A DNA stretch of 62,897 bases, taken from Candidatus Moraniibacteriota bacterium (GTDB taxonomy: Bacteria; Patescibacteriota; Minisyncoccia; Moranbacterales; GCA-2747515). This document shows, in pieces, positions 43,119-61,340 of this stretch. A model generated the notes under the pieces. It did no database searches. It was not told where the DNA came from and saw only the letters and a list, made by a program, of their open reading frames with translations. The stretch's first letter is position 1. Each line of letters starts with the position of its first letter. Location of the stretch: contig JAUVJK010000001.1 in the NCBI GenBank assembly GCA_030592425.1, positions 1-62,897 of the forward strand. Direction: 5' to 3'. A program made the position numbers and the translations under genes.

Positions 43119-45326
43119 ATGAAGCTTCTCATTGTTGAGTCCCCAACCAAGACAACGACGATCAAAAAATATATTACGGACGGCAAGAACTACACGATCA
43201 AGGCGAGCGTGGGACATATTCGCGATCTTCCAAAATCAAACAAAGATGCTATCAACATCGAAAAAGATTTCAAGCCACACTACGTCATCTCTGAGGACAA
43301 ACAAGAAATCGTCGATGACCTCATCAAAAGCGCCAAGAAAGCATCCGAGATTCTCCTCGCGATGGACCCCGACCGTGAAGGAGAGGCAATCGCGTGGCAC
43401 GTTGCTGCTATCCTTGCTGATGCTGGTGTGCCGCGAAAAAAAATGAAGCGCATCGTTTTCCATGAGATCACAAAAGATGCAATCAACGAAGCACTTAAAC
43501 ATCCTCATCAGATCGACCAAAACCTTCGCCGCGCGCAAGAAGCGCGTCGCGTTCTTGATCGCCTTGTTGGTTATGATCTTTCTGGCATTATTTGGAAAAA
43601 AGTCCGTTACGGATTGAGTGCTGGTCGCGTGCAATCTCCCGCGCTACGAATCCTTGTTGAACGTGAAAAAGAGATCAAATCATTTGTCCCAGAACGTTAT
43701 TGGGCGCTCACAGCTAATGTCCTCACGCAAAAAAAAGATACTCTCACACTGGCGTGCAGAGAAGAACCTCGGGAAGAAAAAGAGATGAAACGTATCGTTA
43801 CAATGGGCAAAAAACACCCCTGGACGATCATTGATGCAAAAGAATCCACACAAAAACGAACACCTCGCCCACCTTTTACAACATCAACGCTCCAACAAAC
43901 AGCAAGCTCTCGATTTGGCTTCACGCCATCACGCACCATGCGAGCCGCACAGGGTCTCTACCAAGCTGGTAAGATCACCTACATGCGTACAGACTCAACC
44001 TTTCTCTCCAAAGAAGCGATGGTTGCGATCAAGAAATTCGTTACCGCAGAATATACAGCGAAACTCTACGAGTCACGCACATTTAAAACCAAAAGTAAAA
44101 ATGCGCAAGAGGCCCATGAGGCAATCCGCCCGTCACACGTCAAAACAGAAGTCGCAGGAAAATCAGCTGATCAGAAAAAACTCTATTTACTCATCCATGC
44201 ACGCACCATTGCCAGCCAAATGAAAGATGCACAATTGAAGAAAACAAGAGTGGCTGCTAATATCATTGGCGCAACAATTCCTGACTTTACTGTCGTTGGT
44301 TCGCGTGTCATATCTCCAGGATGGTTTCTCGCTGACCCTGCAGCAAAAAGTGAAGATACAAAAGTACCAGCTGTCACCAAAGGTGATCCTCTCAAACTTG
44401 TAAAGCTCGACACACAAGAAAAAGAAACACTCCCACTACCCCGCTACTCCGAAGCAGGACTTGTCAAAGAATTGGAAAAACGTGGCATTGGTCGGCCAAG
44501 TACATATGCATCAACGATCAAAACAATCCAAGATCGTGGCTATGTTGACAAAGAGGCGCGTGCACTCATCCCAACAGATACCGGTGAGGTCGTAAGCGAT
44601 TTCCTCAGTGAGCATTTTGCACAATACATCAGTGATGGCTTTACAGCAGAAATGGAAAACGAACTCGATGAGATTGCTCGTGGTGAACGTGAATATGCAA
44701 AAACACTCAAAGACTTTTATGAACCCTTTTCCAAAGATGTAAAAAGCAAAGAAAAGCTTGAAAAGGCAACTGATCTCGGTGATGCTGATCCAAAAATGAA
44801 GTGCCCAACATGTAAAGGTAAGATGATCATCAAACTCAGTAAAAATGGGAAGTTCCTGAGTTGTAAGAATTTTCCTGACTGTCAGGGCGCCCGTACTATG
44901 GAAGGTAAAGAACTCGAAGGACCAAAAGAAACCGGTGAGGCGTGTCCTGACTGCAAAGATGGCAAACTCGTTGAACGAGATGGTAAATTTGGACGTTTCA
45001 TCTCCTGTAGCAATTACCCAAAATGTAAATATATCAAAGAAGATCCAAAAGAGATTGCAAAGAAAAAAACAGGTGTGAAATGTCCCGCCTGCAACAAGGG
45101 TGAGATGATGGAACGCAATGGTCGCTTTGGTGTTTTCTATAGCTGTACAGAATATCCAGATTGCAAAAACGCAATCAAAGCAAAACCAACTGGTAAAAAA
45201 TGTAATTATAAAGTCGGCGCAAAAAAATGCGGCGCACTCATGATGCAAGGGACGAAAACCATCCCAGAAAGGTGTAGCGACAAAACATGTCCGAATCATC
45301 GTCCTGATAAGTTAGAAAAGAAGTAA
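43119..45326 (+). CDS. topA: DNA topoisomerase I
   Basis: Toprim MKLLIVESPTK, catalytic ITYMRTDS, four C-terminal CxxC...CxxC zinc ribbons. Confidence 0.98.
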   Translation: MKLLIVESPTKTTTIKKYITDGKNYTIKASVGHIRDLPKSNKDAINIEKDFKPHYVISEDKQEIVDDLIKSAKKASEILLAMDPDREGEAIAWHVAAILADAGVPRKKMKRIVFHEITKDAINEALKHPHQIDQNLRRAQEARRVLDRLVGYDLSGIIWKKVRYGLSAGRVQSPALRILVEREKEIKSFVPERYWALTANVLTQKKDTLTLACREEPREEKEMKRIVTMGKKHPWTIIDAKESTQKRTPRPPFTTSTLQQTASSRFGFTPSRTMRAAQGLYQAGKITYMRTDSTFLSKEAMVAIKKFVTAEYTAKLYESRTFKTKSKNAQEAHEAIRPSHVKTEVAGKSADQKKLYLLIHARTIASQMKDAQLKKTRVAANIIGATIPDFTVVGSRVISPGWFLADPAAKSEDTKVPAVTKGDPLKLVKLDTQEKETLPLPRYSEAGLVKELEKRGIGRPSTYASTIKTIQDRGYVDKEARALIPTDTGEVVSDFLSEHFAQYISDGFTAEMENELDEIARGEREYAKTLKDFYEPFSKDVKSKEKLEKATDLGDADPKMKCPTCKGKMIIKLSKNGKFLSCKNFPDCQGARTMEGKELEGPKETGEACPDCKDGKLVERDGKFGRFISCSNYPKCKYIKEDPKEIAKKKTGVKCPACNKGEMMERNGRFGVFYSCTEYPDCKNAIKAKPTGKKCNYKVGAKKCGALMMQGTKTIPERCSDKTCPNHRPDKLEKK

Positions 45327-45349
45327 ACCAGTCAGCCTTTGGCTGGGAA

Positions 45350-45430
45350 GGGACTAAAACGATTCCGGAGCGATGCTCAAATAAAACCTGTCCGAATCAT
45401 CGTCCTGATAAGTTAGAAAAGAAGAAATAA
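45350..45430 (+). repeat. out-of-frame second copy of the last 25 codons of topA
   Basis: Encodes GTKTIPERCSNKTCPNHRPDKLEKKK*, versus GTKTIPERCSDKTCPNHRPDKLEKK* at 45249-45326. The 3' 36 nt are identical; the 5' part differs almost only synonymously. Confidence 0.9.
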
Positions 45431-45466
45431 AAAAACTGTTATCTGACATGTTATGTCTTACAACAG
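45428..45466 (-). terminator. terminator for 45502..46029
   Basis: Two-part stem CTGTT..GACAT-GTT-ATGTC..AACAG, followed on the minus strand by TTTTTTTATTT. Confidence 0.5.
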
Positions 45467-45501
45467 CTTCGTCTAATGAAAGATTCTTATTTCGACTTTA
45501 A

Positions 45502-46029
45502 TTAGATTCGATACCACCCTTTTTCATCGCCACGCAGACGGAATAACAACCACGTTTTGATCTTTTTTGTACCACGATAGATCTTTGGTGAGATCACTGT
45601 GACATCGTGGGGGTCTAAACCATTCTCTCTTAGTTTTTTACGCAACTCCCACTCGGCATTCGATGTATCACAGGATGTTCCATAATAGTCTGAGAGACCC
45701 TTTTTAAATGCGACGCCAGGATAGACAGCATACTTAAGGAACCAGCCTAAAAAGAAAATAATAATAATGCTGGAGAATAGGATCAATGCGACAAAAGAAT
45801 GCATTAAAAGAGTCCAAATACCCCAAAAAGACAATATTATGAGGAGAAAAATTGCACAACCATAGATCATAGAGATTACATCCTCAAACTCTCCTGTATG
45901 ACGATAAATGAATTGACCAAAGACCGTCTTATGAGACATTTCGGATGCAATTGTAAGACACTCCTCTTCAGAGTACGGACCGACCGCATTCTCTGATAAA
46001 AAGCGTTGCAGTTCTACATTATTTGGCAT
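45502..46029 (-). CDS. hypothetical 2-TM membrane protein (family B)
   Basis: 175 aa: soluble N-domain, TM hairpin, C-domain with ..C..(E)LRKK..NGLDPHDVTVISP. Confidence 0.65.
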   Translation of the reverse strand: MPNNVELQRFLSENAVGPYSEEECLTIASEMSHKTVFGQFIYRHTGEFEDVISMIYGCAIFLLIILSFWGIWTLLMHSFVALILFSSIIIIFFLGWFLKYAVYPGVAFKKGLSDYYGTSCDTSNAEWELRKKLRENGLDPHDVTVISPKIYRGTKKIKTWLLFRLRGDEKGWYRI

Positions 46030-46592: not shown

Positions 46593-47213
46593 CTATGTGG
46601 TTGTTTTTATTGGAGTTGAACCAAACTCAAAATATGGTCTCTCATGCCTTTCTAACCCTCGTTTCTTCTGATCTTTAAAACTCACAAGAGCAACCCTTGT
46701 GCAAGACCACTGACCAGCTTTATCCTTTACAGGTCTTCGTGGGAAGACGATCTCAAAATCACACGGATCTAGCCCGCATAAAATAAAAGCTGTCTCGATC
46801 TTACGCTTTTGAACAAAGCAGTCTGGACAATCCCCCCAGCTACTGTTCCAGATATCGAAATGGCGCGCGGCGAACCGTTCTGGAAGATAAGCAATAAAAA
46901 CACCTGCTCCCAGAGCTATCGACACCAAAGAAGCTGCACCAAATCCGATGAACGCAAAAAAGATGCTAAAAGCTCCACATAGCATAGCAAAATTCCACAT
47001 CTTATCTTCCCAGTTGGCCAATATTCTGTCATCGAGGAAAAAACGGCGAAGAGTTGATGCTGATATACGAGAAAATAATGAATTTCCACTATACAATCTA
47101 TCACTCACAGTTTTGCGAATATCATGATAAGAATACACGACACCGACATTAAAAATTCTTCCTAGATATTCTGCTGCCTGATCGGGTGTTGCGCAACAAT
47201 TATTATGTGACAT
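46593..47213 (-). CDS. hypothetical 2-TM membrane protein (family B)
   Basis: Trimmed to ATG 47211-47213 (RBS AGAGGT). Same architecture as 45502..46029, with ..CPDC..QKRK..CGLDPCDFEIVFP. Confidence 0.65.
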   Translation of the reverse strand: MSHNNCCATPDQAAEYLGRIFNVGVVYSYHDIRKTVSDRLYSGNSLFSRISASTLRRFFLDDRILANWEDKMWNFAMLCGAFSIFFAFIGFGAASLVSIALGAGVFIAYLPERFAARHFDIWNSSWGDCPDCFVQKRKIETAFILCGLDPCDFEIVFPRRPVKDKAGQWSCTRVALVSFKDQKKRGLERHERPYFEFGSTPIKTTT

Positions 47214-47384
47214 AACTATATTACCTCTTGTTGTGAAAAAACTACTATTTGTCCTAAAGACAAGATACACATTAGCATCGAATTTTACAAAAGTCAATAG
47301 AATTTTTCACCATCTCATTCCATAAAATACTCTTCCCTCACACTCAACAGTGCGCTATAGTATGGATAGATAAAGAAATATTCT

Positions 47385-58343: not shown

Positions 58344-61340
58344 TTATACAACAATACTTACTAATTTTCCCTGAACGAAGATCACTTTTCGTACTTTTTT
58401 GCCGTCAATAAATTTCTGTACTTTTTTGCTAGCGAGGGCTTTTTCTTTTGCATCATCTTCTGCAATATCAGCTGCGACCATGATCTTATCACGTACTTTT
58501 CCATTTACTTGTACAACAAGCTCAATCTCGTCATCACTGAGATATTTTTCATCATAGACTGGCCAATTCTCTTCGATCAGAAATGATGTATTGCCCATTT
58601 GTTCCCAAAGCTCTTGTGTTATATGTGGCGCAAAGGGACAGAGGATCTTCAGAAAAGCACCAAAGTCTTCTGTAGAAATACTCTTTTGCTTTTCGATATC
58701 ATTGGAGAGGATCATCATTGCAGAAATTGCTGTATTATATTTCATCTCTTCAATATCGTCACCCACTTTATTGATCGTTTTGTGCAGTGTTTTTTTCAAA
58801 GCATTGGGTGTTTCACCACCAACATAGTCTCTGTAGTAGATCTTCCAAATACGTTCGATGAATTTTCGTGACCCAATCATTCCTTCTGTATTCCATGCGA
58901 CACTCGCATCAAAAGGCCCCATAAACATTTCATACGTACGAAACGTGTCAGCACCAAAACGCTCGATCACATCATCCGGATTGATCACATTTCCCCAACG
59001 TTTACTCATCTTTCGTCCATCCTCTGCTATGATCAGTCCAACAGTCTGTAATTTCGCAAAAGGTTCGTCATGTGACACAACACCAATATCAAAAAGGAAT
59101 TTATGCCAAAATCGTGCATAGATCAAGTGCCGCGTCGCATGTTCTTCGCCACCAACATAAAAATCAACAGGTGACCAATACTTTTCTTTCTGAGGATCTA
59201 CAAGAGCGGTGTCATTCTTTGGATCAATATAGCGCAAATAATACCAACTCGATCCTGCCCACTGTGGCATCGTATCTGTTTCACGCCGCGCAGATCCACC
59301 ACACTGTGGACACTCTGTATTAACCCATTCATCAATTCCCGCGAGTGGCGATTCTCCTGTATCCGTCGGCTCATAATGCTCCACATCTGGAAGTACCAAT
59401 GGCAATTCTTCTTCTGGCATTGGTACAACACCACACTTCTCACAATGAATAAGTGGAATTGGCTCGCCCCAATACCGCTGCCGTCCAAATACCCAGTCAC
59501 GCAATCGATAAGATGTCTTTTCTTCAGCGAGGTCCTTTTGTGCAAGCCACTGCGTGATCTTTGATCGTGCTTCCTCTGACGTAAGCCCGTCGAAATCACC
59601 AGAGTTTACAAGAATACCATCTTCTTCATAGCATTCTTCGAAATTTTTCACTTTTTCCCATGCAGCGTCACTCTTCGGACGAATCGAAACTGTAAGGGGA
59701 ATATTATACTTCTTTGCCATCACAAAATCACGCGCATCATGCGCATCAGCGAACACCGCGCCCGTACCATAGTACGCAAGAACAAAATCTGAAATCCACA
59801 CAGGAATCTCCTGTCCAGTCGCTGGATTGATCACTGTCACACTCTTAAGCTCAACACCCGTTTTTTCTTTATCTACAGCGGTACGATCAATCTCTGTCTT
59901 CTTCTGTGCTGCCTGGATATATTCTTCAACCTCAGTTCCATTTGATATTTTTTCTTTTAATATTTCTACAAGCTCATGTTCCGGTGCAAGAATCACAAAC
60001 GCACCAGAAAAGATCGTATCAACACGCGTCGTGAATACTTTTATAGAGATGTCTTGCACGCCTGAAATAAGATCCAATAACGCTGGGATCTCCTGCTTTT
60101 TTAGCGTACTACCAAAGTGACCTCTATCGTTAAATTTTATGAAGTTCGCATCAAGACCGTGTGCATTTGTTTCTCCATGACTAAATGATACCCATTTATC
60201 ATCTGTTGAATGAAGAACGACAAAATCATCACAATGCTTTTTTATCGCTTCAAAATCATAACCGGCATCTGTATAAAATCCATGTGTATTGTCTTTTGTG
60301 TGTTTCTCGTCACATTTTGCATAGTTCGTTGCAACAAGGATTACTTTTTTTACCTTAAAGTTTTCTGGTTGTTTTTCAAGCCATCGCAAAATCGCAACAC
60401 CTCCACGAGAATGCCCTATAAGAATTGTGTCCTCAGTTGGCTTAGTATCATCTAACTGTGACAGCCACTCGTCCATGTGCGGATCATCAGCATGCAATAA
60501 AACTGGTGCAACAAATGGAATTTTTTTCTTTTGCATTTCTGCCGCAAGCCATGGATACCATTTTTGAGAGGGATCAGTATCTTTGCCATGCATCAAGATC
60601 ACTTTTTGTGACGTACTTTTTAATTCTTCATTCTTAATTCTAAATTCTATTTCTGCACCTTCACTTCTGCCGATCCAATTCCTCTGTGATTGCTTGATAT
60701 TTTCTTGCCAATCGAGCCCATCGAGATCTGCAAGCATGCGATCTGCATAGTCAGTGATCTTAATCACCCATTGTGGCATTTTTTTCTTTTCGATTGGTGT
60801 ACCACAACGCTCACAAGCGCCGTCCTCAAGGTCTTCGTTGGCAAGTCCCGTCTTACATGACGGACACCAGTTGATCGGCTCATGCGAACGATAGACAAGA
60901 TCTTTCTTGAACATTTGCAAGAATGTCCACTGCGTCCATTTATAATAGTCAGGATCAGTTGTGGAAAATTCTCGATCCCAATCATAGTTAAGTGAGATCT
61001 TCTCGATCTGAGTCTTGAATGTGGCAATATTCTCTTGTGTCGCAACACGTGGATGAACTTTATTTTTGAGTGCATATTGTTCTGCCGGCAAACCAAAAGC
61101 ATCCCAGCCCATTGGATGAAGCACATTAAAGCCTTTCATTTTCTTGTACCGCGCAATAATATCGGTGGCGATATAGCCCTTAGGATGCCCCACATGCAAT
61201 CCTACGCCAGAAGGATAAGGAAACATATCAAGAATATAGAATTTTTCTTTGTCAGCATCTTCTGTCGTTTTATAGACACCAGAAGTTTCCCATTTTTCCC
61301 GCCATTTTTGCTCAATTTTCTTATGTTCGTAAAGTTCCAT
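58344..61340 (-). CDS. leuS: leucyl-tRNA synthetase carrying an in-frame alpha/beta-hydrolase insertion
   Basis: HVGHP (HIGH), KMSKR (KMSKS), editing-domain motifs TTRVDT and YGTGAVFADAHDARD; 998 aa. Confidence 0.97.
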   Translation of the reverse strand: MELYEHKKIEQKWREKWETSGVYKTTEDADKEKFYILDMFPYPSGVGLHVGHPKGYIATDIIARYKKMKGFNVLHPMGWDAFGLPAEQYALKNKVHPRVATQENIATFKTQIEKISLNYDWDREFSTTDPDYYKWTQWTFLQMFKKDLVYRSHEPINWCPSCKTGLANEDLEDGACERCGTPIEKKKMPQWVIKITDYADRMLADLDGLDWQENIKQSQRNWIGRSEGAEIEFRIKNEELKSTSQKVILMHGKDTDPSQKWYPWLAAEMQKKKIPFVAPVLLHADDPHMDEWLSQLDDTKPTEDTILIGHSRGGVAILRWLEKQPENFKVKKVILVATNYAKCDEKHTKDNTHGFYTDAGYDFEAIKKHCDDFVVLHSTDDKWVSFSHGETNAHGLDANFIKFNDRGHFGSTLKKQEIPALLDLISGVQDISIKVFTTRVDTIFSGAFVILAPEHELVEILKEKISNGTEVEEYIQAAQKKTEIDRTAVDKEKTGVELKSVTVINPATGQEIPVWISDFVLAYYGTGAVFADAHDARDFVMAKKYNIPLTVSIRPKSDAAWEKVKNFEECYEEDGILVNSGDFDGLTSEEARSKITQWLAQKDLAEEKTSYRLRDWVFGRQRYWGEPIPLIHCEKCGVVPMPEEELPLVLPDVEHYEPTDTGESPLAGIDEWVNTECPQCGGSARRETDTMPQWAGSSWYYLRYIDPKNDTALVDPQKEKYWSPVDFYVGGEEHATRHLIYARFWHKFLFDIGVVSHDEPFAKLQTVGLIIAEDGRKMSKRWGNVINPDDVIERFGADTFRTYEMFMGPFDASVAWNTEGMIGSRKFIERIWKIYYRDYVGGETPNALKKTLHKTINKVGDDIEEMKYNTAISAMMILSNDIEKQKSISTEDFGAFLKILCPFAPHITQELWEQMGNTSFLIEENWPVYDEKYLSDDEIELVVQVNGKVRDKIMVAADIAEDDAKEKALASKKVQKFIDGKKVRKVIFVQGKLVSIVV
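60057..60623 (-). other. about 190-aa serine-hydrolase (RBBP9/YdeN-like alpha/beta) domain inserted in LeuRS
   Basis: LeuRS aa ~240-428: KVILMHG, WYPWL, ILIGHSRGG (Ser codon 60408-60410), VILVATNY, VVLHSTDDKWV, NDRGHF. Confidence 0.75.

Follow-up and report, generated by a model that had tools for sequence, protein, structure and literature searches.

A second copy of the topA tail in the -1 frame: a candidate for programmed ribosomal frameshifting in a Candidatus Moraniibacteriota genome

Background

Why should a housekeeping gene be followed, 23 nucleotides (nt) after its stop codon, by a second copy of its own last codons, partly rewritten in synonymous codons and placed in a different reading frame? 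This question is raised by the topoisomerase gene topA in a stretch of 62,897 nt from a Candidatus Moraniibacteriota bacterium (GenBank assembly GCA_030592425.1, contig JAUVJK010000001.1, positions 1 to 62,897 of the forward strand; hereafter, the window). A sequence-only reading of the window had pointed out the two copies, had concluded that the second one is either under selection as coding sequence or derived from a diverged topA homologue, and had offered three explanations: a longer TopA made by frameshifting or transcriptional slippage, the scar of an integrated element, and a tandem duplication with partial gene conversion. We compared the locus with other assemblies and relatives, in particular with L083 (Logan SRR30503349), which is the closest different lineage and has a TopA 93% identical to that of the window. 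Our answer, as far as sequence comparison can give one, is that copy 2 is probably a translated and selected extension of topA that is reached by programmed -1 ribosomal frameshifting.

The two copies of the topA 3'-end

The features of the gene and of its two tails are as follows (aa, amino acids).

43119-45326, plus strand: topA; zero-frame product of 735 aa with Toprim, Topoisom_bac and three Zn_ribbon_Top1 matches
45249-45326, plus strand: copy 1, the last 25 codons of topA and TAA, encoding GTKTIPERCSDKTCPNHRPDKLEKK and the stop
45288-45323, plus strand: identical block in copy 1, 36 nt, the same as 45389-45424
45308-45310, plus strand: TAA of the -1 frame, which is open thereafter, from 45311 to the TAA at 45428-45430
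45320-45349, plus strand: linker in the -1 frame, EVNQSAFGWE (EVNQSASGWE in L083)
45324-45326, plus strand: zero-frame stop codon of topA, TAA
45350-45430, plus strand: copy 2, encoding GTKTIPERCSNKTCPNHRPDKLEKKK and the stop in the -1 frame
45389-45424, plus strand: identical block in copy 2, 36 nt, the same as 45288-45323

The offset from copy 1 to copy 2 is 101 nt, with a spacer of 23 nt (45327-45349) between them, and therefore copy 2 lies in the -1 frame. Copy 1 comprises the second half of the last zinc ribbon and the tail, a motif that is strongly conserved in related Paceibacteria TopA. Among the first 13 codons 10 differ between the copies, 9 of them synonymously and one causing a D>N replacement (14 nt differences in all), and no shuffle of the sequence produced a second match to the identical 36-mer. 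The sequence-only reading had given the coordinates of the copies, the 36-nt identity and the codon counts correctly; it was also right that the -1 frame is open from 45311 and holds no ATG ahead of copy 2, where GTG and TTG are missing too. Because of the TAA at 45308-45310, a shift into the frame of copy 2 is restricted to the 16-nt interval 45311-45326. There is no third copy of the tail within the window, and none of the other window open reading frames (ORFs) of at least 100 aa is followed by a repeat of its own tail, so this duplication is no general habit of the genome.

Regarding the assembly, an artefact can be ruled out, because three independent assemblies of the strain and the diverged relative L083 share the layout. 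The two additional assemblies of the strain, L001 and L002, are Logan assemblies from other sequencing runs and are 99.9% identical to the window. Their copy 1 has an A in place of the G at 45311 (L001:3127 and L002:3364), which is the sole copy-1 difference among these assemblies; their block is thus 35/36 identical, and the perfect 36-nt identity is found in the window assembly only. The G at 45311 could be due to a one-base gene conversion or to a polishing effect between repeats, and the A/G difference may be a trace of exchange that is still going on between the copies.

Coding constraint on copy 2

L083 has the same copy 1, the 23-nt spacer (ACCAGTCAGCCTCTGGCTGGGAG) and copy 2 in the -1 frame, and both of its copies encode GTKTIPERCSNKTCPNHRPDKLEKK. 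Between the topA genes of the window and L083 the proportion of synonymous differences (pS) is 0.60, the synonymous divergence (dS) is 1.23 and the non-synonymous divergence (dN) is 0.039, that is, the synonymous sites are saturated. With such a dS, neutral DNA should therefore be scrambled between the two. The 100 nt 3' of copy 2 are 29% identical, the blastn homology to L083 stops exactly at the stop codon of copy 2, and the spacer between dprA and topA differs by a 30-nt insertion or deletion (indel).

Along the spacer and copy 2 (98 nt) we counted 15 substitutions. Read in the frame of copy 2, they change 13 codons synonymously and 1 non-synonymously (F/S in the linker), with 0 stops; in the other two frames the result is 1 synonymous and 12 non-synonymous changes each. 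Copy 2 alone shows 13 nt differences, all silent, together with an indel of one whole Lys codon. Third positions account for 11 of the 13 silent changes and synonymous first positions (Arg, Leu) for the other two, and of 100,000 trials in which 13 substitutions were placed at random in copy 2, 0 were fully silent (P < 1e-5). Furthermore, the -1 frame is open over 45311-45430 in the window and over the matching positions in L083. On this comparison copy 2 is under coding-type constraint, with no peptide change across a dS of 1.2. A decayed second copy in relatives had been named beforehand as a sign against selection, and what L083 has is an intact copy 2, without stops and with silent changes.

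The spacer is 91% conserved between the two lineages, with 2 substitutions in 23 nt. If the last 18 nt of topA are added there are still 2 changes in 41 nt, one of which lengthens the stem of the hairpin described below, the other being synonymous in the -1 frame; so little change fits an overlap of two frames with an RNA structure. Two of the silent changes, GAA>GAG and GGG>GGA, precede the first codon that could serve for an internal start or for landing, which suggests that the end of the linker is itself translated.

Gene conversion between the copies

The block of identity between the copies lies at the 3' 36 nt in the window and at the 5' 48 nt (2 differences) in L083. Since these are opposite ends, the blocks are best read as conversion tracts, recent in the case of the window, rather than as a fixed attachment (att) core. 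Outside the blocks, the 5' 39 nt of copy 2 in the window have 14 differences from their own copy 1 with 1 amino-acid change (P <= 1e-5), and the 3' 27 nt of copy 2 in L083 have 9 differences with 0 amino-acid changes (P <= 1e-5). This silent divergence is at the saturated level; therefore the tracts have been apart from copy 1 for that long, yet the peptide was kept. Lineage-specific tracts of identity are a feature of tandem duplication with conversion. The gene-conversion part of that earlier explanation is thus supported, whereas the neutral decay of unconverted tracts, as a build-up of non-synonymous changes, stops and indels, was not seen in the window or in L083.

The history suggested by these tracts, which also fits the distances, would start with a single duplication in the common ancestor of the window lineage and L083, both copies having since been held to the same peptide. 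In the window lineage, copy 1 would have converted copy 2 over the 3' 36 nt. In L083 it was probably the 5' 48 nt of copy 1 that were converted by copy 2, whereby TopA would have acquired its Asn; the L083 protein has Asn where the wider family has Asp.

Slip site, hairpin and route to translation

Three further features concern the way in which copy 2 might be reached.

45317-45320, plus strand: candidate slip site A_AAG, where the Lys codon AAG 45318-45320 may re-pair on AAA 45317-45319
45328-45346, plus strand: hairpin CCAGUCA-GCCUU-UGGCUGG, 7 bp, -10 kcal/mol, starting 7 nt after the slip site
45436-45466, minus strand: terminator (hairpin and U7; z = -4.6), which serves the convergent 175-aa ORF 45502-46029 (minus strand)

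The A_AAG is identical in L083, L001 and L002, and it lies inside the only interval that permits the frame change. A minimal -1 site is a Z_ZZN tetranucleotide, and A_AAG, which has been extensively studied, works in Bacillus cdd, where it yields an extended cytidine deaminase, and in IS1222 (PMC5009743). In L083 the hairpin has 8 bp and -11.9 kcal/mol, the single substitution within it adding a G-C pair. Of the 148 in-frame A_AAG sites in long window ORFs, 0.7% have a structure of <=-10 kcal/mol starting 4-9 nt downstream. The hairpin had originally been described as 5 bp (CAGCC/GGCTG) at 12 nt; the minimum-energy form is instead the 7-bp stem at 7 nt, the 5-bp stem being an alternative register of the same inverted repeat. 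The locus has, then, three defining features of -1 frameshifting: a conserved slip site at the frame junction, a hairpin within about 5-9 nt downstream and a constrained open -1 ORF.

Copy 2 should also be on the topA mRNA. No U tract follows the hairpin, which consequently is no intrinsic terminator, there is no other intrinsic terminator between the copies, and the first terminator-like structure after topA is that at 45436-45466, beyond copy 2.

From these features we infer that a shift occurs and that its codon is the AAG of the slip site. Most ribosomes would end at the TAA 45324-45326 and produce the 735-aa TopA. In a fraction of them, which would depend on the efficiency of the site, the tRNA-Lys on AAG 45318-45320 would slip back one base to AAA 45317-45319, aided by the hairpin 7 nt downstream. 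The shifted ribosomes would read the linker and then the second conserved tail, giving a two-tailed isoform of 770 aa with a predicted end ...PDKLEKEVNQSAFGWEGTKTIPERCSNKTCPNHRPDKLEKKK. A slip at A_AAG predicts the junction ...LEKEVNQSAFGWEGTK and the tryptic junction peptides EVNQSAFGWEGTK and EVNQSASGWEGTK. The longer isoform proposed earlier therefore gains support from L083 as far as ribosomal frameshifting at A_AAG is concerned, but its other variant, transcriptional slippage, is unlikely with no A run longer than 4 at the site.

Other ways of decoding and other RNA elements were considered at the same site. Independent initiation at copy 2 is unlikely, since its frame has none of the three start codons mentioned above and the genes of the window mostly lack a Shine-Dalgarno (SD) sequence. 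The start regions of 22 long window ORFs have AT-rich leaders from which SD-like sequences are mostly missing, and this suggests SD-independent initiation in the organism. An H-type pseudoknot between the hairpin loop CCUU and a downstream AAGG was rejected by inspection, because its connecting loop would have to cross a 7-bp stem with 1 nt, and the two spacer substitutions are not compensatory. No known RNA family was found in 44800-46000, where the only match was a sub-threshold one to CRISPR-DR32 (E = 0.8). A single tRNA-Lys(UUU) for both AAA and AAG would make A_AAG prone to shifting; the window has one tRNA gene, for tRNA-Leu.

Several points weigh against translation by frameshifting. 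The A_AAG is not a canonical X_XXY_YYZ heptamer, as the P-site GAA cannot re-pair, and it arises easily by chance in Lys-rich tails; another assembly with a reading frame behind topA, L106, has one too. The short hairpin has a folding energy that does not differ significantly from that of shuffles of the same 32 nt (z = -1.1 to -1.5). The arrangement is present in only two diverged lineages, so that the selection signal is one pairwise comparison, and gene conversion, which is clearly active at the locus, blurs the selection test. As to the protein, of the Cys pairs of a zinc ribbon the extension has just the second, an alignment-free AlphaFold model of the extended tail was uninformative (predicted local distance difference test, pLDDT, 39), and among the retrieved homologues there is no in-frame double-tailed TopA. 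Sister lineages at 72-75% identity do without copy 2, which is therefore not essential to this type of TopA. Finally, an independent locus, L102, has a silent-only second copy with no frameshift route.

Alternative explanations

If copy 2 is not translated, it might be a relic of a topA 3'-end, left by duplication or by an illegitimate join and overwritten by copy 1 or by the topA ends of other strains. This is unlikely in our opinion, although it would account for the conversion tracts, which are evident in the 36 identical nt of the window, in the 48 nt with 2 differences of L083 and in the single-base difference at 45311. It would also suit the variable region 3' of topA, with a different convergent gene in each lineage, and the case of L102, whose independent silent-only copy lies at the edge of a high-GC island and is cut off from topA by a terminator and stops. 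Moreover, copy 2 of L083 is equally close to the topA end of the relative L166 (7 differences in 66 nt) and to its own copy 1; such a nearest-neighbour test for a foreign donor is to be read with the synonymous sites saturated among all relatives. However, the unconverted segments are silent-saturated (14/39 nt and 9/27 nt) with 1 and 0 amino-acid changes, where neutrality for that long predicts about 20 or more changes, mostly altering the peptide, as well as indels. The relic also leaves unexplained a 91% conserved spacer beside random DNA after copy 2, and it needs either two separate recent imports, each replacing part of copy 1, or recombination with about 40-70 nt at about 85% identity as its anchor. 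Such a rescue is possible but unparsimonious, and we find it doubtful. The scar of an integrative element that targets the topA 3'-end and brings a replacement end, the 36-nt identity being the crossover core, is extremely improbable. Recoded duplicate gene ends are a hallmark of such integrations (e14 icd/icdC, PMC13626634), the spacer contains an inverted repeat, and the DNA 3' of topA varies among relatives. Nevertheless, only 23 nt separate the copies, the 17 kb downstream (housekeeping genes throughout from 47385 on) yielded no integrase, recombinase or phage gene, the window lacks a third copy, the supposed core is 3' in the window and 5' in L083, the copy that should have been displaced has not decayed, and scans of viral contigs found neither the junction nor a topA 3' tail fragment. 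On these grounds the att scar of the sequence-only reading is not supported. A diversity-generating retroelement was rejected as well: the changes are nearly all silent and affect all four bases instead of adenines alone, and there is no reverse transcriptase among the window genes.

The coding constraint on copy 2 is compatible with more than one route of translation, and three routes other than the slip at A_AAG were weighed, which even together are quite improbable. At a shifty stop, the P-site tRNA-Lys would slip -1 at G_AAG with UAA in the A site, which predicts the junction ...LEKKVNQ... and the peptide KVNQSAFGWEGTK. In a hop like that of T4 gene 60, the ribosome would pass from AAG 45321-45323 over the stop and the hairpin to AAA 45356-45358, with the junction ...LEKKTIPER.... 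With initiation at AUU (45362), behind the purine-rich GGGAAGGG, the product would be a free peptide of 21-22 aa. The stop does come directly after the second AAG, the hairpin starts 1 nt past the stop, and the landing AAA and the purine-rich stretch ahead of it are conserved in the window and L083. But re-pairing on GAA at the shifty stop requires a first-position G-U pair, AUU starts are rare and the genome is mostly without SD sequences, and bypassing is extremely rare; the silent GAA>GAG and GGG>GGA upstream of the landing codon suggest that this part is read. The bypass on its own, in which the peptidyl-tRNA-Lys would leave AAG-UAA (45321-45326), skip the 32-nt hairpin gap and land on the AAA, is very improbable; its layout is conserved in L083, the take-off and landing codons not being identical. 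If true, a chromosomal gene of a bacterium would for the first time show a hop like that of gene 60, again in a topoisomerase.

Comparison with known systems

By analogy, the closest parallel to the topA arrangement is cdd of B. subtilis, in which a -1 shift at A_CGA_AAG near the stop yields a C-terminally extended cytidine deaminase (Mejlhede et al. 1999, via PMC5009743). In both cases a single-tRNA slip at A_AAG lies few codons before the stop, and a housekeeping enzyme gains (in topA, would gain) a short C-terminal extension. However, the cdd frameshift has been described as incidental (PMC5009743), whereas topA has a -1 ORF constrained across lineages, a hairpin 7 nt downstream and an extension that copies its own tail.

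With dnaX and the IS3 family (IS1222) topA shares a Lys-codon slip site, a downstream stem-loop at the canonical spacing and, if the shift occurs, two products per gene. These systems use the heptamer A_AAA_AAG (G_CGA_AAG in IS1222), and dnaX has in addition an upstream SD-like stimulator. The shift in dnaX truncates the protein, whereas in topA it would extend it, and an SD-like element is not expected to matter in a genome mostly without SD sequences.

In E. coli K-12, icd extends into the prophage e14 and the fragment icdC lies at its other end (PMC13626634). This resembles topA in the duplicate of a gene 3'-end with mainly synonymous differences and in the chimeric ends that recombination between copies gives. 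Unlike the topA copies, which are 23 nt apart with no element between them and with the outer one conserved as coding, those of icd lie on either side of a 15-kb prophage, the outer one being a pseudogene. T4 gene 60 (PMC5009743) is similar in being a topoisomerase gene with a stop after the possible take-off codon, a hairpin and a codon for the matching amino acid downstream. Its gap is 50 nt against 32 nt in topA and its codon pair is identical rather than AAG/AAA; in topA, moreover, there is no evidence of a nascent-peptide signal and the 3'-end of the gap is apparently translated.

If the frameshift is true, it would be the first recoding event reported in bacterial topA, as far as the literature could be searched: a full-text search returned no programmed frameshifting in topA (one unrelated review) and nothing for frameshifting in the Candidate Phyla Radiation. 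The design would be unusual, with an extension that duplicates the most conserved C-terminal motif of the protein itself, out of frame, and exchanges sequence with the in-frame copy. We may have here a housekeeping Patescibacteria topoisomerase with a trans-frame copy of its tail, kept in step by two-way conversion, in which the rate of shifting sets the ratio of one-tailed to two-tailed enzyme. Such a design would also point to a function of the GTKTIPERCSxKTCPNHRPDKL tail in Paceibacteria TopA.

Relatives and the region after topA

The search for further lineages consisted of protein searches with the full length, the C-terminal 119 aa including the extension and the C-terminal 400 aa, a genome scan and a metagenome scan. 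None of them gave another relative of >75% identity beyond the window lineage and L083; AAGTAAACCAGTCAGCCTYTGGCTGGGA would be a marker for further lineages of the genus. At the species level, the best TopA relatives are Paceibacteria/Nomurabacteria-like metagenome-assembled genomes, with about 61% identity. About 45 related loci and 120/120 best TopA homologues share the conserved motif LMMEGTKTIPERCSxKxCPNHxPxKL, and in none of the retrieved TopA proteins does it occur twice in frame.

The sequence-only reading had proposed to compare relatives, and this comparison yielded both the two-copy junction of L083 and single-copy forms. In seven relatives at 72-75% identity there are 47-85 nt between topA and the next gene, with an ordinary terminator where the sequence was read, and no copy 2. 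The duplication is therefore new to this clade and situated at a variable spot.

In the window, pth and dprA precede topA, which converges on two ORFs without known function. These ORFs, 45502-46029 (minus strand, 175 aa) and 46593-47297 (minus strand, 234 aa), adjoin copy 2, have no match in Pfam, NCBIfam or PHROGs, and have no homologue beside topA in L083. The convergent gene directly after topA is a different one in the window, L083, L164, L166, L167, L171, L172 and L173 (unknown ORFs, Memo, Band_7 and others). To judge from these neighbours, the topA 3'-end is the border of a variable genomic spot.

L102 (2938-3400; JGI Ga0247841_10003354) has an independent second tail, KTIPDRCSDKNCPNHNPHKL, 226 nt after the topA stop. 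It shows about 10 differences from the first copy, all silent, and there is a terminator after each copy. Directly behind this second copy the GC content goes up from about 0.38 to 0.55-0.59, a sign that a foreign island may begin there, and part of the spacer matches DNA 3' of topA in L009. This locus shows that recombination with foreign topA ends can give rise to a copy of this kind, with no need for it to be translated. Copy 2 of the window lineage probably arose likewise, by analogy with L102; the claim of selection rests on the history of copy 2 after its origin and not on the origin. The choice between selection and a diverged homologue was thus soundly posed at the outset, but it could not be decided from one genome: as L102 teaches, one genome with a recoded repeat does not tell selection apart from a foreign origin, whereas one comparison of orthologues can.

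A 172-aa ORF begins 2 nt past the topA stop of L106 (5166-5699). It encodes four zinc ribbons of the Top1 type and lies in the -1 frame, which is open from the A_AAG two codons before the topA stop. The ORF may simply be coupled to topA in translation, or it may be a different means of providing TopA with C-terminal ribbons.

Apart from topA, the leucyl-tRNA synthetase of the window (58344-61340, minus strand, 998 aa) carries a serine-hydrolase domain (PF06821, E = 6e-15) at residues 248-419, inserted between the catalytic core and the editing domain.

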